NCBI GenBank assembly: GCA_964560005.1
Contig: CAZLKB010000003.1
Span: 40,712-104,711, forward strand
Origin: an uncultured Gammaproteobacteria bacterium
GTDB taxonomy: Bacteria > Patescibacteriota > Patescibacteriia > Patescibacteriales > GWC2-42-12
Direction of reading: 5' to 3'
DNA: 64,000 nt
Below, one piece after another: positions 8,239 to 50,927 of this stretch. The stretch's first letter is position 1; each line of letters opens with the position of its first letter. The notes below the pieces were generated by a model. The model saw only the letters and a list, made by a program, of their open reading frames with translations. It did no database searches and was not told the DNA's origin. A program made the translations under genes and the position numbers.

Positions 8239-8293
8239 ACCCCCTTGATAAATTTATCCGCCTCTGGCGGAGGGGGTTGGGGGGATTTATCTT

Positions 8294-8620
8294 CTATACT
8301 TTAGTAATTTCCACTTTGGTAAACGGCTGGTGATGGCCGACATTCCTCTTATATCTGGTTTTATTCTTAAATTTAATGACGCTGATTTTTTTATTTCTCC
8401 CCTGCTCAATAACCTTGCCTTCCACCAGTTCGCCCAAGAACGGCTTGCCCAATTCAACTTTAACTTGCCCTGAGCCAATTGAAGGGTCTCCTTCTGCCGC
8501 CATTAGGGTTTGGAACTTTAAAACTTCGCCTGCCTTGGCGTCTATTTTTTCAATTTTTAAATTTTGCCCTTGGCTCACTTTATATTGTTTGCCGCCGGTT
8601 TTAATTACTGCGATTTTCAT
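8294..8620 (-). CDS. rplU: 50S ribosomal protein L21
   Basis: MKIAVIKTGGKQYKVSQGQNLKIEKI... aligns with bL21 along its whole length. Confidence 0.9.
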   Translation of the reverse strand: MKIAVIKTGGKQYKVSQGQNLKIEKIDAKAGEVLKFQTLMAAEGDPSIGSGQVKVELGKPFLGELVEGKVIEQGRNKKISVIKFKNKTRYKRNVGHHQPFTKVEITKV

Positions 8621-8705
8621 AGTCCTGTAATACTAATACTGCAAATGACACGCGAATACTGCGAATTTGTAGTATTTGAATTATAATTTATTGTATTGAT
8701 TAATC

Positions 8706-9734
8706 TTAAACATTTTTTTTATTTCTGTCAAGGTAAGCAAAAAATACTACCGCCAAGAGCATCATGCCGACCAGCAAAGCCAGGGCATAAACTTTACCAA
8801 TGCTTTGCAAAAACAAGGCGCTAAAGCCGAAGATTACGGCTAGAGCGTAATATAGCAAAACCGATTTTCTGACGGTAAGGCCCAAGGTAAGCAGCCGAAA
8901 ATGCAGATGCTTCCGATCCGCGATTTTAAACGGATTCTGGCCGGCCGCCAGGCGCCGCAGTATGGTCCAAACCACATCTAAGATCGGTATGCCCATAACT
9001 AGAAGAGCTATGGCGATTTTTCCGCCGGAAATTATCGCTAGCACCCCTAAGGCGTAGCCTAAAAATAAAGAACCGCCTTCGCCCAAAAAAATACGAGCCG
9101 GATGCCAATTAAAAAATAAAAATCCCAGGCAGGCCGCGGTTAAGACCAGCGCGGCGAAACCGATATCCGGCTGATAATATTTTTGCGATAAAGTAAAAAG
9201 AAATATAATGAATGCGCCGATAGCGGTCAAGCCGGTGACCAGGCCGTCCAGACCGTCGAGCAGCTTGGTCGTATACATCATGCCTAGAAGCCAGAGAGCA
9301 ATTAAAATAGCCGAAGCCGAGCCTAAGTATAAATAACCGCCCAGCGGGTTGGTAATTTTTTCAATCTCCACTCCGCCGGCGATCAGGCTGATAACGGCTA
9401 AACAAGGAAAAATAAACTGATAAACCGGTTTTAAATTATATTTATCGTCCAGATATCCGCCGATCATTAAAAAGCAGGCGCCGATGAAAAACGAGAGCCA
9501 ATGCCTTACGAGAAGATTGCCGGTAAGTATTTTATCCTGAAAAACGAATAAAATAATAAAAAAAGCCAAAAAAACCGCCAGACCGCCGAGCAAGGGAATA
9601 TTACCTTGATGAAATTTTCTCTCTTTATCCGGCTGATCGGTAATCTTAAATTTTTTAGCTAAACGCAAAACTAAAAAAGTCAGCCCTAAGGCTAACAAAA
9701 TGGTAATAACAAAAATTTCAAAATAAAAAAGCAT
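8706..9734 (-). CDS. Polyprenyl-phosphate N-acetylhexosamine-1-phosphate transferase (WecA/TagO/MraY family, GT4)
   Basis: Polytopic membrane protein with the GGYLDDKYNL and DGLDGL motifs of the MraY/WecA family. The true mraY, with a KSGTPTMGG motif, is at 52244-53293. Confidence 0.75.
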   Translation of the reverse strand: MLFYFEIFVITILLALGLTFLVLRLAKKFKITDQPDKERKFHQGNIPLLGGLAVFLAFFIILFVFQDKILTGNLLVRHWLSFFIGACFLMIGGYLDDKYNLKPVYQFIFPCLAVISLIAGGVEIEKITNPLGGYLYLGSASAILIALWLLGMMYTTKLLDGLDGLVTGLTAIGAFIIFLFTLSQKYYQPDIGFAALVLTAACLGFLFFNWHPARIFLGEGGSLFLGYALGVLAIISGGKIAIALLVMGIPILDVVWTILRRLAAGQNPFKIADRKHLHFRLLTLGLTVRKSVLLYYALAVIFGFSALFLQSIGKVYALALLVGMMLLAVVFFAYLDRNKKNV

Positions 9735-9994
9735 AAATTATTGTTCTTATCGAACCCTTCTTTTTTTATATGCTGGTTTTCTGCCACGCTTTCCATGGCT
9801 ATCATAAATTGAAATATCTCTCTGATTATAATTTAATCTATTTTTCAAAATATTTTTTTCTACTTCGTCCACAATTTTTTCTTGATCGTCTGTAAGCTTA
9901 GAGGGGTCAGGCTGGCTAAACGGCTCTCTAATCTCATATTCTTTCTCAAGATACGAAGGCTCTCTGCTTATGTCGTTTAAATCAATTTTCTTTA

Positions 9995-10152
9995 CATTTC
10001 TTTTACACTGCTTTCCGTCAACAGGTCCTCTTTTTCCATTAAGATTTCGCTTGGATTAGGACTTGGATCAGGTACTTCTTCTATAGGTATAAACATCTTT
10101 CTTCTTGCACTATGGGGAATTTTATTCATGTTGTCTGGATCAAAAAATTTCA
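9995..10152 (-). CDS. Small ORF (52 aa); possibly the 5' part of a frameshifted gene that continues in another frame to 9741
   Basis: MKFFDPDNMNK...SVKEM stop. An adjacent, overlapping open frame with no start codon (KKIDLNDISREPSYLEKEY...KKRRVR) runs to 9741. See findings. Confidence 0.2.
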
Positions 10153-10226
10153 TAAAATTATGCGGCCTCGTCTATCAAGACATTAAACTAGTTGTTATTA
10201 ATTGAAAATTGATAATTGAAAATTAT

Positions 10227-12983
10227 TTATAGCTCTCTCCCCCGCTTGACGCTGATCTTGGCTTCGCCGTCTATTACCACCGTATCCCTTCTCTTAATGC
10301 CGTCTTTTAAAACTATATTGGCTATTTCGTTTTCAATTTTTTCTTGAAGCAGGCGCCTGAGCGGGCGGGCGCCGAATTTCGGGTCAAACCCCAGAGCGGC
10401 TAATTTCTTAATTCCGGTTTCTTCATATTCCAGGCCGATGCCCTTGGCTTCCAATAATCGGGATACTTTTTTTAACATCAATTTAGTAATGCTTTCCACA
10501 TCCCCGAGGCTCAAGGGTTTAAATACTATAACGCCGTCAAAACGGTTAATCAATTCCGGCCTGATAAATTTATTTAATTGATCATTAACCAAGGACTCTT
10601 TAATTTGTTCAAGCGGAGTTCCCTTCTTGATTTCGTCCTGAATATAGACCGCGCCGATATTGGAGGTGGCGATTATAATACTAGAGGTAAAATCAATTGT
10701 CCGCCCCTGCCCGTCGGTCAGCCGGCCGTCGTCCATTACCTGCAAAAATAAATTCAATATATCAGGATGGGCTTTTTCTATTTCATCCAATAAAATGAGG
10801 CAAAACGGCGCTTTACGCACGGCTTCGGTTAAATAGCCTAAAATACCGTCCGGCGAACCGATCATTTTTTCTAGAGATTCCGGCCGTTGATACTCGCTCA
10901 TATCCAGCCTAACCATATAGTTCTCATTGCCGAAATAAACTTCCGCTACCGTCTTGGCTAATTCGGTCTTACCCACTCCGGTCGGCCCCAGAAAAAGAAA
11001 ATTGGCTATCGGCCTCTTGGTTTCCCTTAACTCGGTTCTGGCTCGCCTTAGACTGGCCGCGACCATAGCGACGGCTTCTACCTGGCCAACCATCCGTTTA
11101 TGCATATTCTCTTCTAAATCCAGCAAAGCTCCACTCTCCTTCTCCGTAATTTTAGTCAAAGGAATTTTAGTCTTCCGGCTAATGACGCTCGCTACATCTT
11201 CGGCGTCAACTATGCTATTTACGCCTTTATTCGTTGATACTTCAACCGCGATTGATTCCAAAACATCAACCGCTTTGGCCGGTAAAAATTTATCGTGAAT
11301 ATATTTAGCGGTTAATTCCACGGCTTTAGCAATACTGTCATAAGTGAAATAGACTTTATATTTTGCTTCATAAAAACCGATCTTGCTTTCAATCATCTGA
11401 ATGGCTAAATTCATATCAGGCTCGCTGACTTCAACTTTGGCCATGGCGTCGCCCAGCGGCTTATTTTCAACATATTTGGCATAATTTTTTTCACTGACCG
11501 AGGCTAAGCAAATAAATTCGCGGCGGCTTAAGGCATTGGATAAAACTTCAGATAATTCCAGGCTTTCTTCCTGGCCCGCGGTAATACCCATTAAATTTTC
11601 AATATTGCTAATATATAAAATAATATTTCTCGCCCGCGCCACTTCGTCAATAATAACCAAGAGCCTTTCTTCGGCTTTGGCTGGAGTCGCTCCGCTTAAG
11701 AGCCGGGGAATATCCAATTCCAGCAATCTTTTGTCTTTCAGGATTTTCGGCACATCTTCTTCCACCATCGCCCGCGCCACCTGACCGATGATCATATCTT
11801 TGCCTGCGCCGTTCGGACCGTAAAGCAATACTCCGCTTCTGCCGCTTTCCAAGTTTTGAAAAATCGCCTGGACTTCTCTCTCCCTGCCGACGCATAACTC
11901 CAACCTGCCCCATTTGGCGGCCAAGGTTAAGTCGTAAGAAAAGTGATTTAAAATCGGCGTAGCCACGGCGGTATAAGCTCGGTCCATTGAGCTGGCGGGC
12001 TTAAACCGGGAAGCTCGGCGATAAAGCCGGTAATTTTCCACCAATCGCTCGCTGATAACAAACCACTGAATGACATTATTAATTTTATCCCGGTCAATGC
12101 CCAGATCATAAAGTATTTCAGTTAAATTCTGATCGCGTTTAAGGCAGGGCAAGATGAAATTAATCGGATCTACTTTCTTTTGGCCTAAAGCCTCGGCATT
12201 AATATAGCTTTCCAGGAAAATCTCTTTTAATTCCAAAGATAAGCCGGTAGAATCGGCGCCGGCTTCCAAAGATAATAGCTGATTTTTTAACTTGCTGATC
12301 AATTTATCCGGATCGGCGTTAAGGCGTGAAAATAGGGCGGCCGCCGAATTATCTCTTAAGAGGCAAAAAAATAAATGAATCGGCTTAATCTCGCGGTGCT
12401 TGGCAAAATTCGCCAAAAGAAAAGCCTGCTCTACGACTTTAAACGCGCTCAAGCTAAAACCGTTTGATACTTCAATTTTGTATTTTCCCTTGCTGCTTCT
12501 AAACTCCAGCCAGTTATTAGGCGTTAGGTTCTCAATAGCCTCTCCATATTTAATTTTTTTTATTTTTTTCTTAGACGCTTCCTCCTCGCTTAAACGATAG
12601 ATGACAAACATGTCGGCGATTAAACTCACCCAAAATATAAGAATAAAAATACTTTTAACGCGCCAAAAGGCCAAAACGGTAAAATCGCCGGTATTCAAGC
12701 TGGCTAAATAAACCCAATAAGCTAAAGCCAGTAAACCGCATAAACCGGCGGCATAAGCCAATAAATTAACCACCAGGTGCAAGCTGGTTTTTAAATGCCT
12801 TAATTTTATAATCGGACGGCTTAACTCTAAATTGCTAAAATAAAATCTATTTTGATAATAAGCGATTAAGCCGTGGCCAAAACAATTTTTACATATCAGG
12901 CCGTGATCCAATACGCCGGCGCTGTTGCAAGCGGAGCAGGTGATGAATTGAATTGAATTTTTATTTATATCTTGTTTAGGCAT
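10227..12983 (-). CDS. ClpC/ClpB-like AAA+ chaperone with N-terminal zinc ribbon and transmembrane segments; first ATPase domain degenerate
   Basis: N-terminus CSACNSAGV...CKNCFGHG plus two hydrophobic helices. Clp N-domain repeats follow. NBD1 has Walker A GPNGAGKD and no DE in Walker B (IILYISNIENL). NBD2 is canonical (GPTGVGKTELAK; LILLDEIEKAHPD). The C-terminal D2-small domain is present. Confidence 0.85.
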   Translation of the reverse strand: MPKQDINKNSIQFITCSACNSAGVLDHGLICKNCFGHGLIAYYQNRFYFSNLELSRPIIKLRHLKTSLHLVVNLLAYAAGLCGLLALAYWVYLASLNTGDFTVLAFWRVKSIFILIFWVSLIADMFVIYRLSEEEASKKKIKKIKYGEAIENLTPNNWLEFRSSKGKYKIEVSNGFSLSAFKVVEQAFLLANFAKHREIKPIHLFFCLLRDNSAAALFSRLNADPDKLISKLKNQLLSLEAGADSTGLSLELKEIFLESYINAEALGQKKVDPINFILPCLKRDQNLTEILYDLGIDRDKINNVIQWFVISERLVENYRLYRRASRFKPASSMDRAYTAVATPILNHFSYDLTLAAKWGRLELCVGREREVQAIFQNLESGRSGVLLYGPNGAGKDMIIGQVARAMVEEDVPKILKDKRLLELDIPRLLSGATPAKAEERLLVIIDEVARARNIILYISNIENLMGITAGQEESLELSEVLSNALSRREFICLASVSEKNYAKYVENKPLGDAMAKVEVSEPDMNLAIQMIESKIGFYEAKYKVYFTYDSIAKAVELTAKYIHDKFLPAKAVDVLESIAVEVSTNKGVNSIVDAEDVASVISRKTKIPLTKITEKESGALLDLEENMHKRMVGQVEAVAMVAASLRRARTELRETKRPIANFLFLGPTGVGKTELAKTVAEVYFGNENYMVRLDMSEYQRPESLEKMIGSPDGILGYLTEAVRKAPFCLILLDEIEKAHPDILNLFLQVMDDGRLTDGQGRTIDFTSSIIIATSNIGAVYIQDEIKKGTPLEQIKESLVNDQLNKFIRPELINRFDGVIVFKPLSLGDVESITKLMLKKVSRLLEAKGIGLEYEETGIKKLAALGFDPKFGARPLRRLLQEKIENEIANIVLKDGIKRRDTVVIDGEAKISVKRGREL

Positions 12984-12984
12984 T

Positions 12985-13350
12985 TTAAATTAAAAGTTGA
13001 ATAGTTATTTCATAAATAACCAAGACCGGCAACAAAACCCAAAAACAGATCGCTAAAAACGCCAGGCTAAACCAAACCAGCATAACCAGGCTTCTAAAAA
13101 TGATCTGGCCTAAACGGACAAAAAAGCTGATCAGCATCCCCTGCCAATCATATTGAGCGTACATCGGCTTAAAAATATTTTTTATCCAAACCAACAGCGC
13201 CAAAGCTTTTTGCTGGTTTATCAAAAAATTTCTTACTCCCAAAATAAATTTGACCAAGCCGCGCGAATACCACCAAACCGGGAAATAAATTATATCCCTG
13301 AATAATTCAACAATAATTTGACCGGCGTAAAAAATAAAACTATTAGACAT
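12985..13350 (-). CDS. Hypothetical integral membrane protein (121 aa), operonic with the Clp-like ATPase
   Basis: Three or four hydrophobic helices. Its stop abuts the start of the Clp-like gene. Confidence 0.5.
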   Translation of the reverse strand: MSNSFIFYAGQIIVELFRDIIYFPVWWYSRGLVKFILGVRNFLINQQKALALLVWIKNIFKPMYAQYDWQGMLISFFVRLGQIIFRSLVMLVWFSLAFLAICFWVLLPVLVIYEITIQLLI

Positions 13351-13518
13351 AAAAAATTTAAAATTTAAAAATCAAAGTTAAAAATGACAATGTAAAATTT
13401 AAAAAATTATTATATTCAAACATTTTGCATTTTTAACTGTCATTTTGCATTTTGAGATTTTAACTTTACAATTTTATTATACCATATTCCCCTTTTTTGC
13501 ACCAAGCGCCGGCGAGCC

Positions 13519-13547
13519 TTGACAGTTAATTGGATATTGTGTAATAT
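13519..13547 (+). promoter_or_regulatory. Sigma70-type promoter for secE-nusG (TTGACA-N17-TAATAT)
   Basis: ttgaca at 13519-13524, a 17-nt spacer, and taatat at 13542-13547. It lies inside the ORF-track N-terminal extension of secE, which argues for the 13656 start. Confidence 0.55.
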
Positions 13548-13655
13548 ATAAACATCAATCAATAACACCCGCCAGGGTTGTTTTTTAATAAAACTAACCT
13601 GCCTTTCACCGCTTTAAAAATCCGGGGCGCGGGAAATAAATATAACCTATCAAAT

Positions 13656-13871
13656 ATGGAAAATGAAACTAAATCCAACGGCGTAAATAAAATCATCACC
13701 TACATTAAGGCGTCAATTGAAGAGATGAAAAAGGTTACTTGGCCGACCAAGAAAGAAACCTATAATTATACCCTGCTGGTAATTTTTATCAGTATTGGCG
13801 TGGCTCTATTCTTGGGACTCCTGGATATTATTTTCACCAAGGGTCTGGAATATTTAATTATCAATAAATAG
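13656..13871 (+). CDS. secE: Preprotein translocase subunit SecE
   Basis: C-terminal EEMKKVTWPTKKETYNYTLLVIFISIGVALFLGLLD is the SecE TM signature, directly upstream of nusG. The ORF-track start at 13578 is probably an artefact; the start used here is the Met at 13656. Confidence 0.8.
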   Translation: MENETKSNGVNKIITYIKASIEEMKKVTWPTKKETYNYTLLVIFISIGVALFLGLLDIIFTKGLEYLIINK

Positions 13872-13907
13872 CCTAATTTTAATTATTATTAGCTTTGAAT
13901 TATTCAT

Positions 13908-14453
13908 ATGGCAAAACAAATATTAAATCAAGGCCGGCGCTGGTATGTGCTCCATACTTATTCGGGTTACGAAGAGAATGTTTCGCAGAATTTAAAGCAA
14001 AGGATTGAATCCATGGACATGGAAGACAAAATTTTTAATATTCTTATTCCTACGGAAAAAAAGATTAAAATAAAAAACGGCAAACGGAAAATAGTTGAAG
14101 AAAAAATTTTCCCCGGCTATGTTTTAGTGGAGATGATCGTCACCGATGATTCTTGGTATGTGGTCAGAAATACGCCGAATGTAACCGGCTTCGTCGGCAC
14201 CGGCACGGTTCCGACTCCGATCGCTGAAAATGAAATTAAAGATCTGCAAAAACGGATGGGTGTGGAAGAGCCGAAATTTAAAATTGATGTGTCAATTAAT
14301 TCGCCGGCGCGCATTATTGACGGCCCCTTTAAGAATTTAGAGGGCAAAGTTGTGGAAATTGACGAGGCTAAGGGCAAAATTAAAGTTTCAGTTTCCATGT
14401 TCGGCCGCGAAACCCCGGTGGAGCTGGATTTTTTACAAATTAAAAAGATTTAA
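13908..14453 (+). CDS. nusG: Transcription termination/antitermination factor NusG
   Basis: NGN domain (RWYVLHTYSGYEENV) and C-terminal KOW domain (FKNLEGKVVEIDEAKGKIKVSVSMFGR). Confidence 0.95.
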   Translation: MAKQILNQGRRWYVLHTYSGYEENVSQNLKQRIESMDMEDKIFNILIPTEKKIKIKNGKRKIVEEKIFPGYVLVEMIVTDDSWYVVRNTPNVTGFVGTGTVPTPIAENEIKDLQKRMGVEEPKFKIDVSINSPARIIDGPFKNLEGKVVEIDEAKGKIKVSVSMFGRETPVELDFLQIKKI

Positions 14454-14576
14454 CCCTACAAATCAACAAATCCATTACAAATATACAAATTAGGCTTCTT
14501 ATATTTGTAAATTTGTAGCAAAATTTGTAAATTTGTGGGTATATAAAGATGATATAATCACTAAACTAATTAAGGT

Positions 14577-14996
14577 ATGAAAAAAATATTAACTAAAGTG
14601 AAACTGCAAATCCCGGCCGGCCAAGCCAATCCCGCTCCTCCGGTAGGACCGGCCTTAGGCCAGCACGGCTTGAATATCTCGCAATTCTGCCAGGCATTTA
14701 ATGAAAAAACCAAGGCTAAAATGGGCGATATCACACCGGTAGAAATAACCATCTACGAAGACCGAACTTACACATTTATTTTAAAGACCCCGCCGGCCGC
14801 GGAATTAATCAAAAAATACGCTAAAATTCCTAAAGGTTCGGGCAAGCCGCTGGCCGAAAAAGTCGGTAGTATTACTAAAGCTCAACTGAAAGAAATTGCT
14901 GAAATCAAAATGCCGGACCTGAATGCGCATGATATTGAAGCGGCTATGAGAATCGTCGCCGGCACCGCACGGCAAATGGGAGTGGAGATTAAGTAG
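14577..14996 (+). CDS. rplK: 50S ribosomal protein L11
   Basis: [26 protein letters not shown] matches the bL11 signature. Confidence 0.95.
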
Positions 14997-15118
14997 TTGA
15001 AAATTAAAAAATCAAAATGTAAAATTACAGTTTAAAATGCAAAGTTTAAATTTATAAATTTTAAATTTTACATTGTCATTTTTAACTTTAATTTTTGCAT
15101 TTTACATTAATAACTAAT
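14997..15118. repeat. Family A palindromic AT-rich intergenic element (aaaatgtaaaat/gacaatg type) between rplK and rplA
   Basis: aaaatcaaaatgtaaaattacagtttaaaatgcaaag...aaattttacattgtcatttttaactttaatttttgcattttacatt has imperfect inverted symmetry. One of at least seven copies in the window. Confidence 0.7.
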
Positions 15119-15164
15119 TTGTGGAAGCTCTGAATCAAAGAGCGATATTACCACGAAATAAATT

Positions 15165-15881
15165 ATGAAAAAAGAATCAGTGACCGCAAAGGCTGCAGCG
15201 GACAAAAAAAAGCAGAACAACAAGGTGGAGACAACGGAATATGACCGAAGTAAAGCTTATCCGATCGCCGAAGCCATTGAATTGACTAAGAAGCTTTCTA
15301 AAACCAAGTTTGATGCTTCGGTGGAAGTTCACTTTAAACTGGGTATTGACATTAAAAAGGGCGAACAGCAGGTCAGAGTGGCCGTTCCCCTGCCCCACGG
15401 CACGGGTAAGACCATAAAAGTCGCCGCTTTCGTAACTCAGGCTAAAGAAAAAGAAGTGCGCGAAGCCGGTGCCGATTTAGTCGGCAGCGAAGAATTGATC
15501 GCTGAGATCAAAAAAACCGAAAAGACTAATTTTCAGGTGGCGGTGGCCGAGCCGGCTATGATGAAAAACCTGGGACAAATCGCTAAAATCCTAGGCACCC
15601 GCGGACTGATGCCTTCGCCCAAGAACGATACCGTAACTACCGACCCGGCTAAAGCTGTCCGAGAGCTTAAAAAAGGAAAAGTCAGCTTAAAGAATGACGA
15701 TACCGGAAATGTCCATGTAGCCATCGGCAAAGTCTCCTTTGACAGCCAAAAATTAATTCAAAATTTCGATGTTTTATTGGATGCCGTTAGAAAAGCCAAG
15801 CCGTCCAGCTCCAAAGGAATTTACTTAAAAAATATCACGATTTGCTCAACTATGGGACCGGGTATAAGAGTGGCGATCTAA
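15165..15881 (+). CDS. rplA: 50S ribosomal protein L1
   Basis: Full-length uL1 pattern (KFDASVEVHFKLGIDIKKGEQQVRVAVPLPHGTGK). Confidence 0.95.
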   Translation: MKKESVTAKAAADKKKQNNKVETTEYDRSKAYPIAEAIELTKKLSKTKFDASVEVHFKLGIDIKKGEQQVRVAVPLPHGTGKTIKVAAFVTQAKEKEVREAGADLVGSEELIAEIKKTEKTNFQVAVAEPAMMKNLGQIAKILGTRGLMPSPKNDTVTTDPAKAVRELKKGKVSLKNDDTGNVHVAIGKVSFDSQKLIQNFDVLLDAVRKAKPSSSKGIYLKNITICSTMGPGIRVAI

Positions 15882-25452: not shown

Positions 25453-25971
25453 ATGGCCGACCTAAAAAATCCGCATCTCACCAGGCTTAGCTGGGATGAA
25501 ACTTTCATGAACTTGGCGCTTTTAATCGCGCAAAGAACCGCTTGCCGCTTCCACATTGTCGGCGCAGTTTTCGTTGATGATAACAATCGGATAATTTCCC
25601 TGGGCTACAACGGTCCGTCCGAAGGCGATTACCACTGCAACGAAGTCGGCTGCGCTAAAATTGACGGCAATCCGGTGACGAAAAAAATAGAACGCTGCCG
25701 CGGCGTGCACGCGGAAATTAACGGGATTATCAATTCGCAAAATACCAGCCGCCTAAAAGGCGGCGCACTTTACACCACGGTTCTCCCCTGCTACGACTGC
25801 ATGAAAGCTATAAATAACGCCGGTATTAAAGAGGTCGTCTACAAGGAAGTCTATAAGCGCATCCAGACCGGTGGAGAAAAATTTGAGGAAGAACGCGAAG
25901 TTTGGAACTTGGCGGAAAAACGCGGCATAAAAATTAGGAAGTATGAAGGAAAGGTATATTTAAAAATTTAA
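25453..25971 (+). CDS. dCMP deaminase (ComEB-like cytidine/deoxycytidylate deaminase)
   Basis: Zinc-binding HAEINGI ... PCYDCMKAI motifs. Confidence 0.85.
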   Translation: MADLKNPHLTRLSWDETFMNLALLIAQRTACRFHIVGAVFVDDNNRIISLGYNGPSEGDYHCNEVGCAKIDGNPVTKKIERCRGVHAEINGIINSQNTSRLKGGALYTTVLPCYDCMKAINNAGIKEVVYKEVYKRIQTGGEKFEEEREVWNLAEKRGIKIRKYEGKVYLKI

Positions 25972-41510: not shown

Positions 41511-41660
41511 ATAATTTAAAATGTAAATCTCAAAATGTAAAATGACAGTTGAAAATGCAAAATGTCTAAATTAATAATTTTAAACTTTACATTGTCATTG
41601 CTCTGCAATGACCCCGCATCTGCGGGGTGCTAGCGGAGCTAGCATTTTACATTTTGATTT
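41511..41660. repeat. Family A palindromic element carrying an inserted GC-rich hairpin, between grpE and hsp20
   Basis: aaaatgtaaatctcaaaatgtaaaatgacagttgaaaatgcaaaatg...actttacattgtcatt plus ctctgcaatgaccccgcatctgcggggtgctagcggagctagc. Confidence 0.65.
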
Positions 41661-42525: not shown

Positions 42526-42526
42526 A

Positions 42527-43213
42527 TTATTTCTCTATTAAAATATCATTAATAAATTTTACTAACGCTAAGTTTTTTTCATAATTCATCCTCATCGGCC
42601 CTAATACTCCCACTAATCCGACATTATCGCCCAACCGATATTTCGTAATAATGACACTACAATAAGCGCCGAACGGATTTTTCGCGCCCAGCATAATCTG
42701 CGTCCCGAATTTTAAATCATTAAAAATGCGGCCGATGATTTCATCCAGGCGATCAATCAAGCCGGAAATATCATAAATCATATCGGCTTGGGAAAATTCC
42801 GGCTGATGCAAAAGGTTGGAAACCCCGGTGTAATATAAATTATGCTTGTGGAAAGCCCAGAAAATCGCGTTGCCGGAAATTTTTGCCATAATCTTGGCCG
42901 CTTGCTTAAAGCTCATTTCTTCCTTCTTGGCCAAGATTTCTTTAAAAATTTTTGCTTCGCTTTCGCTTAACTTCTTTTCGCTTAAGTTTTCCAAATAAAA
43001 ATTATAGGCTTTTTCCGTCGGGATGCGGCCGGCCGAAGTATGCGGCTGGGCGATGTATCCGGCTTCTTCCAGGTCCGCCATTTCATTTCTAACCGTGGCC
43101 GAAGAAATGTCCAAATTATACTTTTCCACCAAGCCTTCAGAACCGATGGGCATAGCGGTTTTTATGTATTCTTTGATTATGGTCTTTAGTATTAATTCCT
43201 TGCGTTTGTCCAT
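42527..43213 (-). CDS. hrcA: Heat-inducible transcription repressor HrcA (short form)
   Basis: N-terminal wHTH (ELILKTIIKEYIKTAMPIGSEGLVEKYNLDISSATVRNEMADLEEAGYI). A CIRCE operator sits upstream. Confidence 0.85.
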   Translation of the reverse strand: MDKRKELILKTIIKEYIKTAMPIGSEGLVEKYNLDISSATVRNEMADLEEAGYIAQPHTSAGRIPTEKAYNFYLENLSEKKLSESEAKIFKEILAKKEEMSFKQAAKIMAKISGNAIFWAFHKHNLYYTGVSNLLHQPEFSQADMIYDISGLIDRLDEIIGRIFNDLKFGTQIMLGAKNPFGAYCSVIITKYRLGDNVGLVGVLGPMRMNYEKNLALVKFINDILIEK

Positions 43214-43297
43214 AGATTTGTCCCCCTTCTAATCGGGGGATTTTCCCCAGAGGCGGATCCGCCTTCGGCGGAAAGGGGGTTTAATATCCTTGTTTCC

Positions 43298-43326
43298 ATT
43301 ATATAAAACATTAGCACTCCTGTCAA
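43298..43326 (-). promoter_or_regulatory. Sigma70 promoter of the hrcA operon (TTGACA-N17-TATAAT on the minus strand) overlapping CIRCE
   Basis: Minus-strand -35 ttgaca (complement of 43321-43326) and -10 tataat (complement of 43298-43303), 17-nt spacer. Confidence 0.55.
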
Positions 43327-43337
43327 GAGAGTGCTAA
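43311..43337. promoter_or_regulatory. CIRCE operator (HrcA binding site), perfect inverted repeat
   Basis: TTAGCACTC-CTGTCAAGA-GAGTGCTAA matches the CIRCE consensus TTAGCACTC-N9-GAGTGCTAA exactly. Confidence 0.85.
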
Positions 43338-43452
43338 ATCATTTATTTTATAAAATAAAAAATGACTAAAATTAAACATTTTTATATATTTAAGGTTGAC
43401 AAAATTATATATTAATGATAAATTTATTACTCCACATACCATGCGGTAACAA

Positions 43453-43767
43453 TTGGACAACACACTCTGGCTAGTTGCCAGCCAAACTCTGCCGACAGAA
43501 AAAATGAGCAGAATAGAATACCAACATCCGACAGAACCGAAGGCTATGGCCATCGGCGTGGATCAATTCATGGTCCCCGGCGACTCTGACCCTAGAACCT
43601 TCCTTCAAATTTGGGACACTACTACAGGCAACCAACCCACTAACGAGGAAGGCTTTAATAATCTCCTCGTCAACAGGCTTGACGTGGACGTTGACCAAGT
43701 AATAACGGTCGCCAAACAATACGGCTTTAAAGTGCCGGAGGTAGAAGTCTTCGAGCTCTTTGATTAA
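43453..43767 (+). CDS. Hypothetical protein (104 aa), GC-richer than its surroundings
   Basis: Plus-strand ORF preferred over the overlapping antisense ORF. It ends at a hairpin plus T-run shared with the mrdA 3' end. Confidence 0.35.
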   Translation: MDNTLWLVASQTLPTEKMSRIEYQHPTEPKAMAIGVDQFMVPGDSDPRTFLQIWDTTTGNQPTNEEGFNNLLVNRLDVDVDQVITVAKQYGFKVPEVEVFELFD

Positions 43768-43807
43768 TCCGAACAATCCGCACGAGCACAAGCTACGGCG
43801 GGTTTTT

Positions 43808-45763
43808 TTATTTCCTGCTAAACCACCAATCCAATACCTCCTTGGCGATGGGCACGGCTACGGAAGAGCCTTCCCCGCCCTGCTCAATTAAGATGGTTAG
43901 AACGATTTGCGGATTATCGTAGGGCGCGAAACCAGTGAACCAGGCGTGAGTTGGCTTGGTCGAAGACCATTGGGCCGTGCCGGTTTTTCCGGCCACCGGC
44001 ACCGGCACAGTTTGCAAAATCTGGGCGCTGCCTGAAACAACGGTTTGGCGCATGCCTTGCTTGACAATTTCTATATTCTTAGCGCTGACAAAATCGCTTC
44101 TAACCGGCTTATTATCCAATTCTCCAATAATTTTATCCTGGCTATCTAAAAAATACCGGATTAAGTGCGGCCGGTAGAGTGAGCCGCCGTTGGCGAAAAC
44201 CGCGGTATAATCGGCAACCTGCAACGGCGTAACCAGGAGATCGCCTTGGCCGATTGACACATGATAGGTGTCGCCGATATACCAAACTTCCCCCTTGGTT
44301 TCTTCTTTCCATTCTTTAGTGGGAAGAAAACCATCTACCTCGCCGGGCATATCTATGCCGGATTGCGTATCCAAACCGAATAGCTTTTCATAGTTTACCA
44401 TCCGTTCCAGCCCTAAGCCTTTAAAATCCTGGTAGCCGCCGCCAATGTAATAGAAAAAAGTATTCACCGAATTGGCGATCGCCGATCTGACATTAACCGT
44501 ACCGTGCCCGCCGGCTTTCCAGTCGGGAAAAAACCATTGATCAATTCTTAGTCCGCCGGTGCTTAAAAAACTGGTATTTTCATTAATTACCTTTTCTTCC
44601 AGCGCCGCCGCCGCGATCACCGGCTTAATTACCGAGCCGGACGGATATTCGCCGGCGATACAGCGATTGAATAAAGGCTGGTCCGGGTGCCCCGCGATGC
44701 TTTGATACTGGGCTTCGGTCATGCCGCGGGCAAAATCGTTATTATTATAAGAAGGAAAACTTACCATGGCCAAAATTTCTCCATTATTCGGATCTAAAGC
44801 GATAGCGCAGGCTTTATTAAGCTTTAGCTTCTCTAAAGCGCTGATTATTGACTCTTCTATTTTTTTCTGCAATTCAATATCTAAAGACAAAACTAAATTA
44901 TGTCCGTCTTCGCCCGCTTCTTGGGTAATAATTTTCTTTTCCTTGCCTAAGGCGTCCACTTCTATCTGCTTTTTGCCGTTAATCCCCCTCATTTCATTTT
45001 CCCAAAAATTTTCTACGCCGGCTTTGCCGATGTAATCAATTGGTAAATACTCTTTGCCGAATTTAGTTAATTCGTTCTCATTAATTTTTCCGGTATAGCC
45101 CAAAATATGGGATAAAGACAAGCTGAATAAATTGTATTCGCGCCTGGTCTTATTGGTTATGATGACGCCCGGCATATTATCCGAGGCTAAATATAGCATC
45201 ATGGCTTTTTCATAATCAATATTATCAGCAATAAATAAAGGCTGATAAGATTCCAACGATCCGGCTTTTACTTCGGCCAAAGAATTAATAATCTCATCGG
45301 TATTCACGCCGCTCAAATTTTCGCTGACTTTTTGAATTATTTTCCTTTGTTCCAGCTTATCTTTAGGCAGATCCGCCGGAACAAAATATAATAAAAAATT
45401 AGCCGAATTTCTTACCAGCGGCCGGCCGGCTCGATCATAAATCACCCCGCGCTTGGCTTCCAGCCTTTCCACTCTGATGCGGTTGCCTTCGGCTAATTCG
45501 TAGTAGTAGCTGCCTCGGGCGATTTGCAGCCAGCCGGCGCGTCCGATGATAAAGCAAAAAAATAATAACAAAGCCAAATTAATTTTAAAAATTTTATTAA
45601 TATCAAAACTCTTGCCAATCATTTCTTTTTTTCCTATAAAAGATGATTGGGGCTGTTCCAATTCCCAAGCGCCAAAATCCCTTTTTAATTTGCCGGTGCC
45701 GGTGCTGCCTTCCTGAATAACGAAGGGGTCGCTTCTGTTTATATGTTTTTTAAAAAAAATCAT
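43808..45763 (-). CDS. mrdA: Penicillin-binding protein 2 (elongasome transpeptidase)
   Basis: SxxK (SGSVIKP), SxN and KTG(T) motifs. Adjacent to the mreD-like gene. Confidence 0.85.
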   Translation of the reverse strand: MIFFKKHINRSDPFVIQEGSTGTGKLKRDFGAWELEQPQSSFIGKKEMIGKSFDINKIFKINLALLLFFCFIIGRAGWLQIARGSYYYELAEGNRIRVERLEAKRGVIYDRAGRPLVRNSANFLLYFVPADLPKDKLEQRKIIQKVSENLSGVNTDEIINSLAEVKAGSLESYQPLFIADNIDYEKAMMLYLASDNMPGVIITNKTRREYNLFSLSLSHILGYTGKINENELTKFGKEYLPIDYIGKAGVENFWENEMRGINGKKQIEVDALGKEKKIITQEAGEDGHNLVLSLDIELQKKIEESIISALEKLKLNKACAIALDPNNGEILAMVSFPSYNNNDFARGMTEAQYQSIAGHPDQPLFNRCIAGEYPSGSVIKPVIAAAALEEKVINENTSFLSTGGLRIDQWFFPDWKAGGHGTVNVRSAIANSVNTFFYYIGGGYQDFKGLGLERMVNYEKLFGLDTQSGIDMPGEVDGFLPTKEWKEETKGEVWYIGDTYHVSIGQGDLLVTPLQVADYTAVFANGGSLYRPHLIRYFLDSQDKIIGELDNKPVRSDFVSAKNIEIVKQGMRQTVVSGSAQILQTVPVPVAGKTGTAQWSSTKPTHAWFTGFAPYDNPQIVLTILIEQGGEGSSVAVPIAKEVLDWWFSRK

Positions 45764-45955
45764 ATTTCTACAAATCTACAAATTAGCTCACAAATATCAC
45801 AAATAAAATTTTTTGCATTATTTGTGATATTCGTGAATTGATTTACCTGCCTGTCCGGCTCGCTTATCCGGAGAGTAAGCCAGCCTCGCCGAGTCTAGGC
45901 GGGCGAGGCGGGCAGTTAAATTTGTGAATAATTAAATGAATAAATCTAAATAATC

Positions 45956-46525
45956 CTAATACTTTCCTCTTTTCATTAAAAAAACCGGCCGTAAATTTCC
46001 GCCCAGAAAATGAATTAAGTAATAGATAAGCAAAGTAAACAGTAAATTTAAACTCAGCTGTTTTAAGATGGTGGTCCAAAAGTTCAAATCCGCTAAAAAC
46101 CAGTATTGATCGGTTTCAATAAAAATTATGGATATGAAATTTATGATTAATTCATAAACCGCGGTCGCCAAAGCGACTAAAGCCAAAAAGGAATACAACG
46201 AACGGTTGGTAAAGAAATAGTTCAATAAAAAATTAGCGATAATAACGGTCAGGCTCATGCTTATAAGATAAGCGCTAAAGGGCAAAAAAGAAAAAATATC
46301 CAGCATAAATCCGGCTCCAACCGACCACCAGGCGGCGAAGTTAAAACCGGAAAAACCTAAAATAAAGATCAAAACCACTAAGACCAGGTTCAAATTAAAT
46401 AACCAGCCCGGCAAACCGCTGATAAAAGCGATTTGCACCGTCACCAGGCTGATAATAAATATAATATTGGCAATTATTTTGACAACCATATTATTTCGCA
46501 ATATTTTTATTACCCACAAAATCAA
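45956..46525 (-). CDS. mreD: Rod shape-determining protein MreD-like (polytopic membrane protein)
   Basis: Hydrophobic 5-6 TM protein immediately upstream of mrdA. Weak family signal; the true start may be at MVVKII (46489). Confidence 0.45.
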   Translation of the reverse strand: MILWVIKILRNNMVVKIIANIIFIISLVTVQIAFISGLPGWLFNLNLVLVVLIFILGFSGFNFAAWWSVGAGFMLDIFSFLPFSAYLISMSLTVIIANFLLNYFFTNRSLYSFLALVALATAVYELIINFISIIFIETDQYWFLADLNFWTTILKQLSLNLLFTLLIYYLIHFLGGNLRPVFLMKRGKY

Positions 46526-46640
46526 CGTTAATTCGCTATAAATTCGCGATTAATTTGCTTTGTTTATCTTAACAAAAAACTAACAAAAAAGCCACTTGCC
46601 TTAAGTGGCTAAATTTTTATTGTCAAAGACTGCTAGAGTT

Positions 46641-48107
46641 TTACTTTCTCACCAGATTCTCCCCCACTCTAAAAATATCGCCCGCGCCCATTAAGACCAC
46701 GACATCATTTCTCTCAATCTGCTCGCGCAAATATTTTTCGCATTCCACTAAAGTCGGTATATATCTTACCTCTTGGTTGACGCCCAGAGATTTATTTCTA
46801 GCGATAATATTTTCCACTAATTCGCGCGCCTCAACCCCGCCCTGCCCGCCTCGACTCGCACGCTCGTCGGGCGAGGCGGGCTTCTCCCGCGCCGAACCGT
46901 AAATATCCAAAATAATTAATTCGTCAACCTGATCAAAGCTTTTCACGAAATCTTGAAACAAAGCCTTGGTGCGGCTGAAAGTGTGCGGGTGAAAAGCCAC
47001 GACCAGCCTGCGCACGCCGTATTTTTGCCGTATCGCGCTTACGGCGGCTTTTATTTCCGTAGGGTGGTGGGCATAATCGTCAATTACAGTGGCTCCGCGA
47101 AATTCGCCTAGCACTTGCATTCTCCGCTCCGTGCCGGTGAATTCTTCCAAATATTTTCTAATTTTAAAAAGTTCAATATTCAACTCAATACTGACCGCGA
47201 TCACGGCCAAAGCATTTAAAATATTGTGCTTACCGGCCAGTTGAATGGAAAAATCGCCTAATTCATCCCCCCTGATAAGGGGGGCCTCTCCATTTTCATC
47301 CTCCACGCCCAGTTTAACTTTAAAATACTGTTTTCCCTGATCAGCTCTAATATCATAAGCCACATAATCCGCCGCCTCGTCAATAGCATAGGTTATTACC
47401 TTGCCTTTGCAGTTTACCTGGGCGGTTTTTCTGATCACGGGATCGTCAATATTCGCCACCAAGAAACCTCTGGCAGGAATTTTTTTTATAAATTCTGTAA
47501 AAACATTTTCATAATCCGCTTCGGTTGGAAAAAAATCAGGATGATCATAATCAATATTATTTAAAATCACGGCTTTAGGCTGATAATACTGCAGCTTGTT
47601 CTGATATTCATCCGCTTCTATTATTAAATATTCAGAGCCTCCGGTTAAAGAACAGCCGTCTAACTGCGGTACGCGCGCTCCTACCATAACGCTAGGCTCC
47701 AGGCCTGATTTTTCCATAACATACCCGAGCCACGCCGTCGTTGTAGTTTTGCCGTGAGAACCGACCACCGCAATGCCGTATTTTTGATTAAACACCTCGC
47801 CTAAAGCTTGGGCATAAGTCAAAGTTTTAATTTTTCCAGTTAAAGCCGCGGCCACTTCAATATTGGTATCGGGAGTATAGGCGGTGGAATGTATTATTAA
47901 ATCTGTGTCAGCGGGTATATTCATCGCATCAAACTTTTCAATAACTTTTATGCCGCATTTTTTTAACACCGCGTCGGTCATGTACTTTTCCTGCCCATCG
48001 GAGCCGCTGACTTCCATTCCTCGCGCGCTTAAATACTGAGCCAGCATGGTCATGCCTACGCCTTTTATGCCAATCATGTAAATTTTTTTAATTTTGGTTA
48101 AATCCAT
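46641..48107 (-). CDS. murC: UDP-N-acetylmuramate--L-alanine ligase MurC with an in-frame GC-rich insertion
   Basis: IGIKGVGMTMLAQYLSARGMEVSGSD N-terminus, GSHGKTTTT P-loop and Mur ligase C-domain. The ASPDERASRGGQGG segment is encoded by the palindrome at 46845-46882. Confidence 0.85.
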   Translation of the reverse strand: MDLTKIKKIYMIGIKGVGMTMLAQYLSARGMEVSGSDGQEKYMTDAVLKKCGIKVIEKFDAMNIPADTDLIIHSTAYTPDTNIEVAAALTGKIKTLTYAQALGEVFNQKYGIAVVGSHGKTTTTAWLGYVMEKSGLEPSVMVGARVPQLDGCSLTGGSEYLIIEADEYQNKLQYYQPKAVILNNIDYDHPDFFPTEADYENVFTEFIKKIPARGFLVANIDDPVIRKTAQVNCKGKVITYAIDEAADYVAYDIRADQGKQYFKVKLGVEDENGEAPLIRGDELGDFSIQLAGKHNILNALAVIAVSIELNIELFKIRKYLEEFTGTERRMQVLGEFRGATVIDDYAHHPTEIKAAVSAIRQKYGVRRLVVAFHPHTFSRTKALFQDFVKSFDQVDELIILDIYGSAREKPASPDERASRGGQGGVEARELVENIIARNKSLGVNQEVRYIPTLVECEKYLREQIERNDVVVLMGAGDIFRVGENLVRK

Positions 48108-48325
48108 AATAATATTAACACCTTAATTGACTTGCTTTTAATTTTAAATGCGAGCATAGAAAAATTTAGGATTAGATTTGGCCTAAAATTTACTTACAAA
48201 CATTTTCCTTTAGTTGTTTCTGATGAAAATTTTGTTGGAAATTTTAGGCCAAATCCCTAAATTTTTCTCCAGCGAGCGACTTTTTGGTTACTTTTTCTAG
48301 AAAAAGTAACCCCAGCGGAGCGTTC

Positions 48326-49099
48326 TTATTTTACTCCGCAATGATCGCAGTCATCAAAATCAATTTTCGGAATCACGCTTAATAAAAGTTTTAAAACATT
48401 GCTGGAGTTATCTTTCATCACCTGCATGATCGCCTGCCAGGTAACACCCTCTTCGCCTTCCCGCCAGGCATCATAGTCGGTTGCCATCGCCACGCTGGCA
48501 TAACAAATACCCAGTTCTCGGGCCAGAATTACTTCGGGTACGGTTGACATGTTTATTATGTCTGCTCCCATTTGCTTAAAAAAGCGGCTTTCCGCCCGGG
48601 TAGAAAATCTCGGCCCTTCAATGGTAATCACTGTTCCGGTTTGGTGATATGAAAGACCCAGCCCCCCGGCTGATTCAATCAAAATCTGCCGCAAACCTGG
48701 GCAAAAAGGATCGGCCATGGCGGTATGCACTACTTTGTCCTCAAAAAAAGTCAGGTTGCGGTGTTTGGTAAAATCTATAAACTGATCCAAAATTATAAAA
48801 TCCCGAGGCTTAATATCCTCCCTGAGAGACCCGCAGGCCGTAGTGGCTAAAATATGCGTGCAGCCGATTTCCTTTAAAGCCCAAATATTGGCTCGATAAG
48901 GCACCTTGGTCGGCATAATAGTGTGGTTTAGCCCGTGCCGCGCCAATACTACAACATCAACGCCGTTTATCTCCCCGCTAATTAATGGCGCCGAGGTGGC
49001 GCCGAACGGCGTTTCTACTTTTTTTTCTTTAGCCTTTTTTATGATTTCCGGGTTATCAATCCCGCTGCCGCCGATAATAGCGATTTTGATTTTACCCAT
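48326..49099 (-). CDS. mtnP: S-methyl-5'-thioadenosine phosphorylase / purine nucleoside phosphorylase
   Basis: MGKIKIAIIGGSG..., GADIINMSTVPEV, PNP/MTAP family. The ORF-track N-terminal extension to 49204 is judged spurious because it runs through an inverted repeat. Confidence 0.85.
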   Translation of the reverse strand: MGKIKIAIIGGSGIDNPEIIKKAKEKKVETPFGATSAPLISGEINGVDVVVLARHGLNHTIMPTKVPYRANIWALKEIGCTHILATTACGSLREDIKPRDFIILDQFIDFTKHRNLTFFEDKVVHTAMADPFCPGLRQILIESAGGLGLSYHQTGTVITIEGPRFSTRAESRFFKQMGADIINMSTVPEVILARELGICYASVAMATDYDAWREGEEGVTWQAIMQVMKDNSSNVLKLLLSVIPKIDFDDCDHCGVK

Positions 49100-49248
49100 A
49101 TATTTTTCTATAATTATACTTAAATTTACCCACAAATCTACAAATCGGCTACGAATACTACAAATATTTATTCGCGGCATTCGCATATATTTGCAGATTA
49201 GCATTATATCATTCGTAATATTTGTAGCCGATTTGTAGATTTGTGGGA

Positions 49249-49776
49249 TTATTCCGATTCATACTCCACCAAACTTCTCACCTCAATCCCCTGCTCTTTA
49301 ATTTTTTTTGACCCGCCTAAAAACGGCAAATCAATCAAAAAGCTTACTCCTAAAATATCTCCGCCCAGCCTTTCTATTAAATCGCAAGCGGCCAAGGCCG
49401 TGCCGCCGGTAGCGCACAAGTCGTCAATTAAAATAATGCTTTCGCCCGGCTTAATGGCATCATCATGAATTGCCACTATATTAGAATCATACTCATAGGT
49501 GTACTCCTTTTCTATCGTTTTGGAAGGCAACTTGCCCTTTTTACGAACAATAGCCAGCCCGGCGCCTAATTTATATGCAATCGGCGCGGCCAAAAGGAAA
49601 CCGCGTGCGTCTATACCAACCACTTTATCAATTTTTTGCCCAGCGTACGGTGCGGCTAATTGATCAACCGCCTGCCTGAAAGCCTGACCGTCTTCCAGTA
49701 AAGTCGTAATATCTTTAAAATTAATTCCCGGCTTCGGCCAATCCGATATTTCCCTGATTTTAGATTTTATATCCAT
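49249..49776 (-). CDS. apt: Adenine phosphoribosyltransferase
   Basis: PRPP-binding motif ILLIDDLCATGGT. Confidence 0.9.
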   Translation of the reverse strand: MDIKSKIREISDWPKPGINFKDITTLLEDGQAFRQAVDQLAAPYAGQKIDKVVGIDARGFLLAAPIAYKLGAGLAIVRKKGKLPSKTIEKEYTYEYDSNIVAIHDDAIKPGESIILIDDLCATGGTALAACDLIERLGGDILGVSFLIDLPFLGGSKKIKEQGIEVRSLVEYESE

Positions 49777-49793
49777 AAAATTCCATTAATAAT

Positions 49794-50927
49794 TTATTCC
49801 AACATTTTCAAAATAATTCTTACCATATCCCGGTTCGCTCCTTCCTTTATCACCCGCCCCATCTTTTCTCCCAGCTTTTTCTGCAAGTCTTTATTATTAA
49901 TCAAATTTTTTATCTCCGTAACAAATATTTCAGAGGTTAAGTCTTTCTGTTCTAACACTATGGCCGCGCCTTTAAACATAGCCGCATTCTCTTCCTGGTG
50001 CGACTCCGGCATGGGGATAATTATGGCCGGCTTTTTTAAATATGACAATTCGGATAAAACTCCCAGCCCGGCGCGCGTCACGACTACTTCGGCTAATTTA
50101 AGCGCCTTTGCCATTTGCTCCGTTTCTAAAAATTCGTATTGCGCGTAATTTTTTATCTCTAATCTCTCATCTCTACTCTCCTTACCTTTTCCTGTAACAT
50201 GAATAATCTGGCAAATCTTGGTCAACTCCCCAAAGCTCTGTTCCACTAACCGGTTAATTGCCATCGCTCCTGTTCCCCCGCCAACGATTAAGACAACGGG
50301 CAAACTTTTGTCTATTTTATTAAATTGAAAATTGAAAATTGAAAATTGAAAATTTTTCCTAATGGGGTTTCCGGTCCAAACCGCTTTTTTGCCGTAGTCA
50401 CGCATTGATTTTTCAAAAGTTACGGTTATAATCTTAGCAAAAGGCGCCATTAATTTATTGGCCAAGCCTGGCCGGACATCTTGCTGATGGATTAAAACCG
50501 GTACGCGCAAAAGCCAGGCCGCCCAAACCACCGGCACACTGACGAAACTACCCGCGCTCATCACCATGTCCGGCCGCCACTTTAGCATTATGAAAAGAGC
50601 TTGAAAAAAACCTAGTTTAATTTTAAAAATATCCACTAAATTATTTAAAGAAAAATACCGGCGCCATTTTCCGCCGCTAATCGCCTTGAATTTTATTCCT
50701 TCTTTTTCCACCATTACTTTCTCCACTCCGAATTTAGTGCCCAGCCATAAAAATTCGTAACCCCCCGCGCCCTCTCTTCTGCCCCCTTGATAAAGAGCCT
50801 GTCCCGCACTTGATGCGGGAGGGTTAGGGGGATTTTTCATTTCATCATAAATAGCCAAGAGCGGCGCCACCGACCCACCCGTACCGCCTCCGGAAAAAAG
50901 AATTTTGTAAGTTTTTTCATTATTCAT
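49794..50927 (-). CDS. murG: UDP-GlcNAc:lipid I GlcNAc transferase MurG with two repeat-encoded segments
   Basis: GGTGGSVAPLLA N-terminus, GT28 N and C domains. The PPNPPASSAGQALYQGGRREGAGG insertion (GC-rich element 50761-50835) and the NFQFSIFNFQF interdomain linker ((AATTTTC)n, 50324-50355) are both in frame. Confidence 0.9.
   Translation of the reverse strand: MNNEKTYKILFSGGGTGGSVAPLLAIYDEMKNPPNPPASSAGQALYQGGRREGAGGYEFLWLGTKFGVEKVMVEKEGIKFKAISGGKWRRYFSLNNLVDIFKIKLGFFQALFIMLKWRPDMVMSAGSFVSVPVVWAAWLLRVPVLIHQQDVRPGLANKLMAPFAKIITVTFEKSMRDYGKKAVWTGNPIRKNFQFSIFNFQFNKIDKSLPVVLIVGGGTGAMAINRLVEQSFGELTKICQIIHVTGKGKESRDERLEIKNYAQYEFLETEQMAKALKLAEVVVTRAGLGVLSELSYLKKPAIIIPMPESHQEENAAMFKGAAIVLEQKDLTSEIFVTEIKNLINNKDLQKKLGEKMGRVIKEGANRDMVRIILKMLE

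Follow-up and report, generated by a model that had tools for sequence, protein, structure and literature searches.

How do short GC-rich hairpin sequences come to stand both between genes and, in frame, inside the genes of two essential cell-wall enzymes? The question is raised by a 64-kb stretch of contig CAZLKB010000003.1 (the window), in which such sequences occur within murG and murC, after the ribosomal protein gene rplU and in other spacers; the nearest proteins to the MurG and MurC of the window are those of Candidatus Falkowbacteria and other Patescibacteria (the candidate phyla radiation, CPR). An earlier note made from the letters of the window had grouped these sequences as one small mobile hairpin element, and all of the sequences it cited are present, with slight corrections to their coordinates. 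We find that the window does hold in-frame hairpin mini-elements in essential enzymes: they are inserted and dispersed, nest within one another, use the same hot spots repeatedly and have turned over recently. In behavior they match Rickettsia palindromic elements (RPEs) and intragenic repetitive extragenic palindromes (REPs), and they are members of neither group. We consider it probable that they are modular GC-rich palindromic repeats of the RPE type and the REP/BIME (bacterial interspersed mosaic element) type, selfish or neutral, which are mobilized in trans and retained only in permissive loops.

The main family has a three-block layout, (A)AAT-C5, an optional GC hairpin, and C5TT-loop-AAG5, with a G block able to pair with either C block. 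Copy 1 (8240-8288, plus strand; CCCCCTTGATAAA-[nested hairpin]-GGGGGTTGGGGGGATTT) lies between a bidirectional terminator (8205-8239), which it adjoins, and the stop codon of rplU (ribosomal protein L21; 8294-8620, minus strand, stop at 8294), on the 3' side of the gene and 5 nt from its stop. Copy 2 (50782-50835, plus strand) lies within murG (49794-50927), antisense to the gene, which reads it as NPPNP..LYQGG. The earlier observation that the block after rplU recurs in murG with the same ends was borne out: the copies share an identical 13-mer (CCCCCTTGATAAA) and 15-mer (GGGTTRGGGGGATTT) at their ends, and they are the sole matches in the window to the pattern CCCCCTTGATAAA-N(20-40)-GGGTTRGGGGGATTT, for which shuffled sequences gave an expectation of 0.00. 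Directly after TTGATAAA each copy carries a small hairpin, and the two hairpins differ, that of copy 1 being ATCCGCC-TCTG-GGCGGA (8254-8272) and that of copy 2 CCCGCA-CTTGA-TGCGGG (50803-50819). Both of these modules occur elsewhere. ATCCGCC-N4-GGCGGA has sites at 4569, 8254 and 43255, the first of them an intergenic hairpin (ATCCGCCAGCTGGCGGAT; 4569-4590) and the last (43255-43273) part of a composite of the same modules (CCCCCTTCTAATCGGGGGATTT plus CCCC-[CCGCCTTCGGCGG]-GGGGGTTT; 43222-43282, plus strand) in the hrcA leader, between the CIRCE (controlling inverted repeat of chaperone expression) operator (43311-43337) and the ATG of hrcA (42527-43213, ATG at 43213). CCCGCA..TGCGGG occurs at two window sites, 41613 and 50803, against 0.02 expected; the former (41613-41626) is intergenic and within an AT-rich repeat, and a third copy is found outside the window, beyond its left edge (L196 near 7924). 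The GC hairpins of the hrcA leader and at 41613 had both been pointed out before and are present.

Relative to insert-free orthologues, the net insertion in MurG is 69 nt (50763-50831, minus strand) and 23 residues (P33-G55), and it consists of the three-block element together with a decayed second unit (RREGAG). The low-complexity peptide is as previously described, and alignment with orthologues confirmed that it is inserted: over the segment from L24 to W61, 40 of the 119 homologues aligned have 17 residues or fewer and so are without it, 62 have 23 or more, and the window protein has 37. An AlphaFold model of the window MurG (mean predicted local distance difference test score, pLDDT, of 87.8) places residues 32-56 in a loop with pLDDT of 46-64 that joins the helix at 17-31 to the strand at 57-63. 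On the coding strand, the base element AAATCCCCCTAACCCC^CTTTATCAAGGGGG is common to the window and to three related loci (L121, L122, and L136); the window and L136 carry an extra piece at the position marked ^, of differing sequence, and L121 has a second unit downstream. In other orthologues this codon position is taken by hairpins of quite another sequence. Peptides read from this site, such as NNPPNPLYQGG, KIPLTPFDKGG, TSPPAPLLIRRGE, and SPLIKGD, represent one palindrome type in varied frames and orientations, and therefore the conserved entity is the DNA hairpin and not the peptide. In other CPR lineages the same MurG loop holds AT-rich repeat peptides (RITNYELRI, RIRNKELGI, MSDVGCRMSDVG), so that an AT-rich repeat class shares this hot spot with the GC hairpins.

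The insertion in MurC (46641-48107) is 36 nt long (46845-46880, minus strand), in frame, and encodes the 12 residues PASPDERASRGG. It is carried by a palindrome, GCCCGCCTCG-N18-CGAGGCGGGC, at 46844-46881 (arms 46844-46853 and 46872-46881), which is the longest perfect GC stem within any gene of the window. Orthologue alignment again agreed with the earlier proposal of an insertion, as the segment is missing in 108 of 120 homologues, where ..SAREK runs directly into QGGV.., and 11 homologues have a related 10-residue insert, QPALPDASLGG. We thus regard the MurG and MurC segments, as the earlier note did, as lineage-specific in-frame insertions of hairpin DNA and not as conserved protein. A second hairpin in murC, unlisted in that note (CCCCCCTGATAAGGGGGG; 47267-47284), belongs to the three-block family and is read as APLIRGD in a hypervariable acidic loop; the same loop holds between one and four units of this kind in many orthologues.

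The murC palindrome had been described as related to a hairpin at 45846-45916, and this relation held. The latter is an intergenic composite of ~70 nt, in which outer ends that are inverted (CCTGCCTG..CAGGCAG) enclose an inner hairpin (GCCTCGCC..GGCGAGGC), and together with the murC insert and a copy beyond the window it makes up one family, labeled GCCCGCCTCGCC, within which the stem shows a compensatory change from C:G to T:A. The copy beyond the window is near-identical and lies 3 kb past its right edge (L197 near 9998); further members are an insert in another murC (L133) and a copy in L159. With at most one mismatch, the word GGCGAGGCGGGC has five sites in the window against 0.31 expected. 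At 3988-4001 (plus strand) the word GGCCCGCCTCGCC, read as ASGEAGR, is possibly, from its letters, a half-unit of the same family. The idea of a single family was not upheld: the element of murG, rplU and hrcA and that of murC and 45846 share no sequence, and therefore the families number two or more, in addition to the nested modules.

The reading frame through the insert was intact in every orthologue examined (>100), with insert lengths in multiples of 3 and no stop codons, and because of this the insert DNA is almost certainly translated. Comparison of 61 metagenomic murG loci found many insertion hot spots in MurC and MurG and almost none in the membrane proteins FtsW and MraY, which is what a filter that passes insertions only in permissive loops of soluble proteins predicts. 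Further hot spots were seen in MurG near residue 73 and at 193-207 (e.g., ASASS.. before GIK, and the interdomain linker) and in MurC near residues 30, 90, 266-282, and 441, with peptides of the LLRQGYGGQA type.

Recent turnover was evident in two genomes that are 92% identical (L145 and L150). In the leader of the gene for the CCA-adding enzyme, they differ by a 24-nt hairpin that in L145 is nested in the loop of a CCCCTCC-CGA-GGAGGGG hairpin, and for which no template was found within 8.5 kb. L150 has an element of ~50 nt with three blocks twice, once in this leader and once 500 nt downstream, in frame between the two domains of the enzyme; at the in-frame site L145 has the cassette TTPQPLLEKEGGQDG in place of EIKSGINPPRPRGAATPPEDGTS, and both are in frame.

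To see how far the three-block element extends, one genome per species was scanned with the pattern CCCCCTTGATAAA-N(3-33)-GGGGGATTT, which matched at least 120 contigs from several phyla, where ~2 would be expected in random sequence. Among the 139 matches listed, 126 complete the hairpin CCCCCTTGATAAAGGGGG, though the pattern made no such demand; 110 are minimal units of 28-33 nt, and 29 have an extra GC hairpin between two G blocks. By host group, the matches listed include ~46 contigs of Patescibacteria, 27 of Proteobacteria (Thiobacillus and others, among them Chitinibacter with a complete genome), 21 of Ignavibacteria, Kapaibacterium, and Bacteroidetes, 16 of Geobacter, Geomonas, and Desulfuromonadales, and one of Nitrospirota. 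At least eight copies, seven of them 29 nt long and one 30 nt, occur in a single Falkowbacteria metagenome-assembled genome (MAG). Judging by flanking peptides, many copies in Patescibacteria are in frame, in open reading frames (ORFs) resembling those for enolase, Der, MiaB, GlmS, UvrC, and a methylase. Thiobacillus has units in inverted doublets and arrays, and such doublets were not found in the ~73 kb of the source genome covered here (the window plus 6.4 kb and 3.1 kb from 10-kb Logan contigs), which hold three to four copies of the three-block element and three of the murC family. As merely five viral contigs matched the pattern, phages are not an obvious vector. Our literature search on the element sequence, on repeats of CPR/Patescibacteria, and on DUF559 genes with repeats found no description of the element and no paper that ties DUF559 to repeats; its coverage was incomplete and novelty is unproven.

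Two kinds of enzyme came into consideration as movers of these units. Small DUF559 nuclease genes (Pfam PF04480; nearest solved structure 3HRL, which has no assigned function) had three-block units as neighbors at every one of the 11 loci examined, and at most loci on both flanks. Four of these loci had been found by the pattern, in Thiobacillus, Parcubacteria, Gracilibacteria, and an unclassified bacterium (genes at L032 2418-2777, L057 5363-5689, L115 1913-2293, and L120 7595-7918), and the other seven were fetched regardless of the element (L187-L195, gene at 1501 or 3001); all seven were bordered by units, those of L192 being weaker hairpins with stems of 3-4 C. In L194 an exact CCCCCTTGATAAAGGGGG..GGGGGATTT unit lies 34 nt from the DUF559 start codon, in L192 secY and adk stand on either side of the gene, which is wedged between them, and in L194 and L195 it is bordered by direct repeats of ~50-110 nt. 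Within 300 nt of DUF559, which over the seven loci amounts to 4.2 kb, there were 17 hairpins with C/T arms, against three in the other 28.8 kb, an enrichment of ~33-fold. A strict three-block scan of the first three of the seven placed all seven of its elements within ~350 nt of the DUF559 gene; the strict density in murG loci was 0.69 per 10 kb. Many DUF559 homologues have C-termini that read into hairpin peptides. The layout, with outward-facing units on both sides, mirrors that of genes for the REP-associated tyrosine transposase (RAYT) among REPs.

The conventional alternative, a RAYT, was met once, in a Falkowbacteria relative whose murG lies 2 kb upstream of it (L138 8964-9509; NCBIfam REP_Tyr_transpos, 88 bits against a cut-off of 80). 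That gene is followed by a different repeat (9513-9900), at least four tandem GC-rich copies of 92 nt with a CTAC/GTAG-adjacent hairpin, and a cognate RAYT bordered by three-block repeats was found neither there nor in the window. We hold, as a tentative proposal with the odds somewhat against it, that the three-block hairpin could be the non-autonomous form of a hitherto unrecognized cross-phylum mobile system whose autonomous unit is a DUF559 gene (Vsr-like, PD-(D/E)XK) between inverted copies. If so, it would be a REPtron built on another enzyme, the DUF559 domain would gain a function, and the proposal would explain both how Patescibacteria, Proteobacteria, Desulfuromonadales, and Ignavibacteria come to have one 30-nt sequence in common and why hairpin cassettes turn over rapidly in housekeeping proteins of Patescibacteria.

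Taken as repeats mobilized in trans, the hairpins would have arisen as at least two sequence families plus small modules copied to many places in this genome and its relatives. New units would prefer to land in or beside existing hairpins, in their loops or between their blocks, and this would produce the nested mosaics. Copies surviving in genes would be those that keep the frame, add no stop codon, and have landed where a soluble protein has a disordered surface loop; there they would be read out as floppy low-complexity peptides; the same MurG and MurC loops would be struck repeatedly because only copies in permissive loops survive. The enzyme would be encoded outside the window, with the small DUF559 nuclease as the best candidate by association. 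The earlier suggestion of a small mobile element thus stands in so far as the same sequences occur at unrelated sites in this and other genomes, and is weaker on transposition itself, which we infer and for which the window offers no transposase.

Several points weigh against this explanation. A tblastn search of the 64-kb window with RAYT, IS608 TnpA, and DUF559 queries (the first two approximate) found none of them. No target-site duplication, for which the earlier note had proposed a check, flanks any copy, whether in the window, in the Falkowbacteria MAG, or between filled and empty murG and murC sites. Neither GTAG nor CGTC, the tag of REPs, was found at the element ends, the foot of the three-block ends (CCCCCTTG.. 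and ..GGGGGATTT) included. The junctions share microhomology with native codons (AAAAAT; AAG; CAGGGCGG), which also fits a copy-choice origin. The copy number in the source genome comes from the ~73 kb only, and translation of the inserts is deduced from conservation of the frame only. Lastly, the DUF559 link is correlative, with one subfamily sampled, and the genes might simply land in hairpin clusters.

Of the rival explanations, local formation is the most probable, and we nevertheless judge it unlikely. In this view the palindromes come from template switching during replication, through quasi-palindrome correction or the snap-back copying of neighboring sequence, and not from a mobile unit, and the hot spots are sequences prone to such errors. 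It would account for the lack of target-site duplications and for element ends that overlap native codons (AAAAAT and CAAGG in murG, AAG and CAGGGCGG in murC). At the MurG site the insert-free L132 has kept GACGTCGG; at the corresponding point L131 carries a perfect palindrome of 33 nt (GACGTCGGACGTCTT-GAA-AGACGTCCGACGTC), which could reflect palindrome formation in situ or a deletion scar. Local templating, however, cannot put the same 13-nt and 15-nt ends, the ~50-nt element, or a 29-mer at unrelated loci, it cannot account for the same elements in several phyla, and the nested 24-nt insert of L145 has no template nearby.

Less probable still, in our view, is that the hairpins are RNA structures selected for gene regulation, as terminators, mRNA stabilizers, translation pause sites, or thermosensors. 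Copy 1 does lie in the 3' untranslated region of rplU, and an element in plus orientation ends in a terminator-like G5ATTT(T). In the hrcA leader, just past the CIRCE operator, the mRNA strand at 43220-43239 has a hairpin, CCCCC-GAUUAGAA-GGGGG, that pairs with a AAGGGGGA site resembling a ribosome-binding site, 7-15 nt before the ATG, and that could act as an RNA thermometer-like switch. Against such a role, a third to nine tenths of orthologues are without the genic segments, other sequences occupy the same site, the genic copies stand in both orientations and several frames, and the folds, though stable, gain only modestly over shuffles (z of -1.3 to -2.8). An Rfam scan of the whole window gave two tRNAs only at gathering score, with no hairpin matching a curated covariance model. 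Nor is the element an intrinsic terminator in the settings examined: along the rplU mRNA strand it runs into UAAAAAAC, after which comes a separate canonical terminator that rplU has of its own beside the element, and the genic copies are mid-gene. Individual copies may have been co-opted for regulation.

That MurG and MurC gained the peptides as adaptations, e.g., as a loop binding membrane or a partner and kept by selection on the protein, seems very improbable. Many lineages do have inserts at one and the same loop; yet the peptide varies with frame and orientation while the DNA palindrome stays constant, the same DNA is intergenic too, the loop is predicted to be disordered, and the in-frame site turns over between 92%-identical genomes. 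The idea that the inserts are left untranslated, by ribosome bypassing (as in T4 gene 60 or with mitochondrial byp) or by removal from the mRNA, can be set aside as the least credible, as every insert examined is in frame and there are no matched take-off and landing codons and no in-frame stop, for all that the byp elements of yeast mitochondria are a likeness to GC-rich hairpins of 30-70 nt inserted in coding regions.

Among known systems, the closest likeness of palindromic repeats moved in trans is to RPEs, which occur between genes and in frame in conserved, functional protein genes (Ogata et al. 2000, via PMC3733652). Like these, the hairpins have intergenic and in-frame copies, add surface peptides, have no obvious transposase of their own, and leave conserved genes intact despite the insertion (69 nt in MurG, 36 nt in MurC, and further cases in relatives). 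They differ in that RPEs are ~100-150 bp and restricted to Rickettsia, whereas the present units, of 18-70 nt, are modular, nest in one another, appear unrelated in sequence, and have a cross-phylum core, and it is this unit length and the Patescibacteria (Falkowbacteria-like) host that set them apart from RPEs. The definition of REPs includes the GTAG/CGTC tag, and intragenic REPs are described (Di Nocera et al. 2013, PMC3733652). With REPs, BIMEs, and REPINs (REP doublets forming hairpins) the elements share GC-rich imperfect palindromes of 20-40 nt (the minimal three-block unit spans 28-33 nt, its stem being 7 bp long and its loop 4 nt), mosaic arrays, the inverted doublets of Thiobacillus, copies downstream of genes, occasional in-frame copies in housekeeping genes, and a dedicated gene bordered by repeats, the REPtron layout. 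In contrast to REPs, they have no GTAG/CGTC tag, the bordered gene is a DUF559 nuclease and not a RAYT, and the share of copies inside genes seems unusually high in Patescibacteria.

MITEs (miniature transposable elements with inverted repeats; e.g., Correia/NEMIS, RUP, and ERIC) are likewise small, non-autonomous, dispersed repeats, and the copy at 45846-45916 has inverted ends as they do. It is the only one that does; there are no terminal repeats derived from an insertion sequence (IS), most units are far shorter, and since target-site duplications are absent we do not class the elements as MITEs. The byp or GC clusters of yeast mitochondria are GC-rich hairpin mini-elements in a lower-GC genome and occur in coding regions as well, much like the elements here. 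They differ in that byp breaks the frame and the ribosome bypasses it, while here the frame is always kept, and host and sequences are unrelated. The earlier note had spoken of high-GC inserts in an AT-rich genome, and the inserts are indeed GC-rich, but the window, with a GC content of 41%, is only moderately AT-rich.

These elements would explain odd low-complexity stretches in Patescibacteria proteins (PLxKGG, NPPNP, GEAGR) as translated selfish DNA, which is relevant to annotation, alignments, phylogenies, and structure prediction in the large and uncultured Patescibacteria. Even streamlined genomes of ~1 Mb evidently tolerate repeats that invade essential cell-wall enzymes, strike the same hot spots again and turn over fast. 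The bordering of DUF559 genes by the elements gives a very common domain a concrete, testable function, and suggests that REPtrons come in another kind besides that built on a RAYT. Most worth pursuing, in our view, are the core unit shared across phyla, the rapid turnover of cassettes, and the DUF559 association.

Some smaller observations concern the surroundings of these elements. The composite at 45846-45916 lies near a gene for a penicillin-binding protein 2 (PBP2)-type transpeptidase (43808-45763). The tsaB-like ORF that holds the murC-family word (3891-4274) is 127 residues only, with a TsaD/TsaB family match over residues 33-91, after which a GC-rich segment (ASGEAGR..) carries the word; this ORF may have been truncated or remodeled by an element. 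In L159 (4255-4330) a murC-family unit is nested within a ATTCCCGC..GCGGGAAT hairpin with the peptide signature IPAFAGMT, and the hairpin word is present in unrelated genomes too (L030 flank). CCGCC..GGCGG at 25749, in the gene for a dCMP deaminase, looks native (peptide RLKGG) and was rejected as an insert, and generic GC islands were uninformative, most windows of 70% GC being ordinary coding sequence. Runs of five or more C or G are rarer in the window than expected (36 against ~81 under a first-order Markov model), and about a third of them fall within hairpin elements. In the spacer at 6276-6343, three overlapping hairpins on the word ATTGCGG/CCGCAAT appear to form a separate repeat family.

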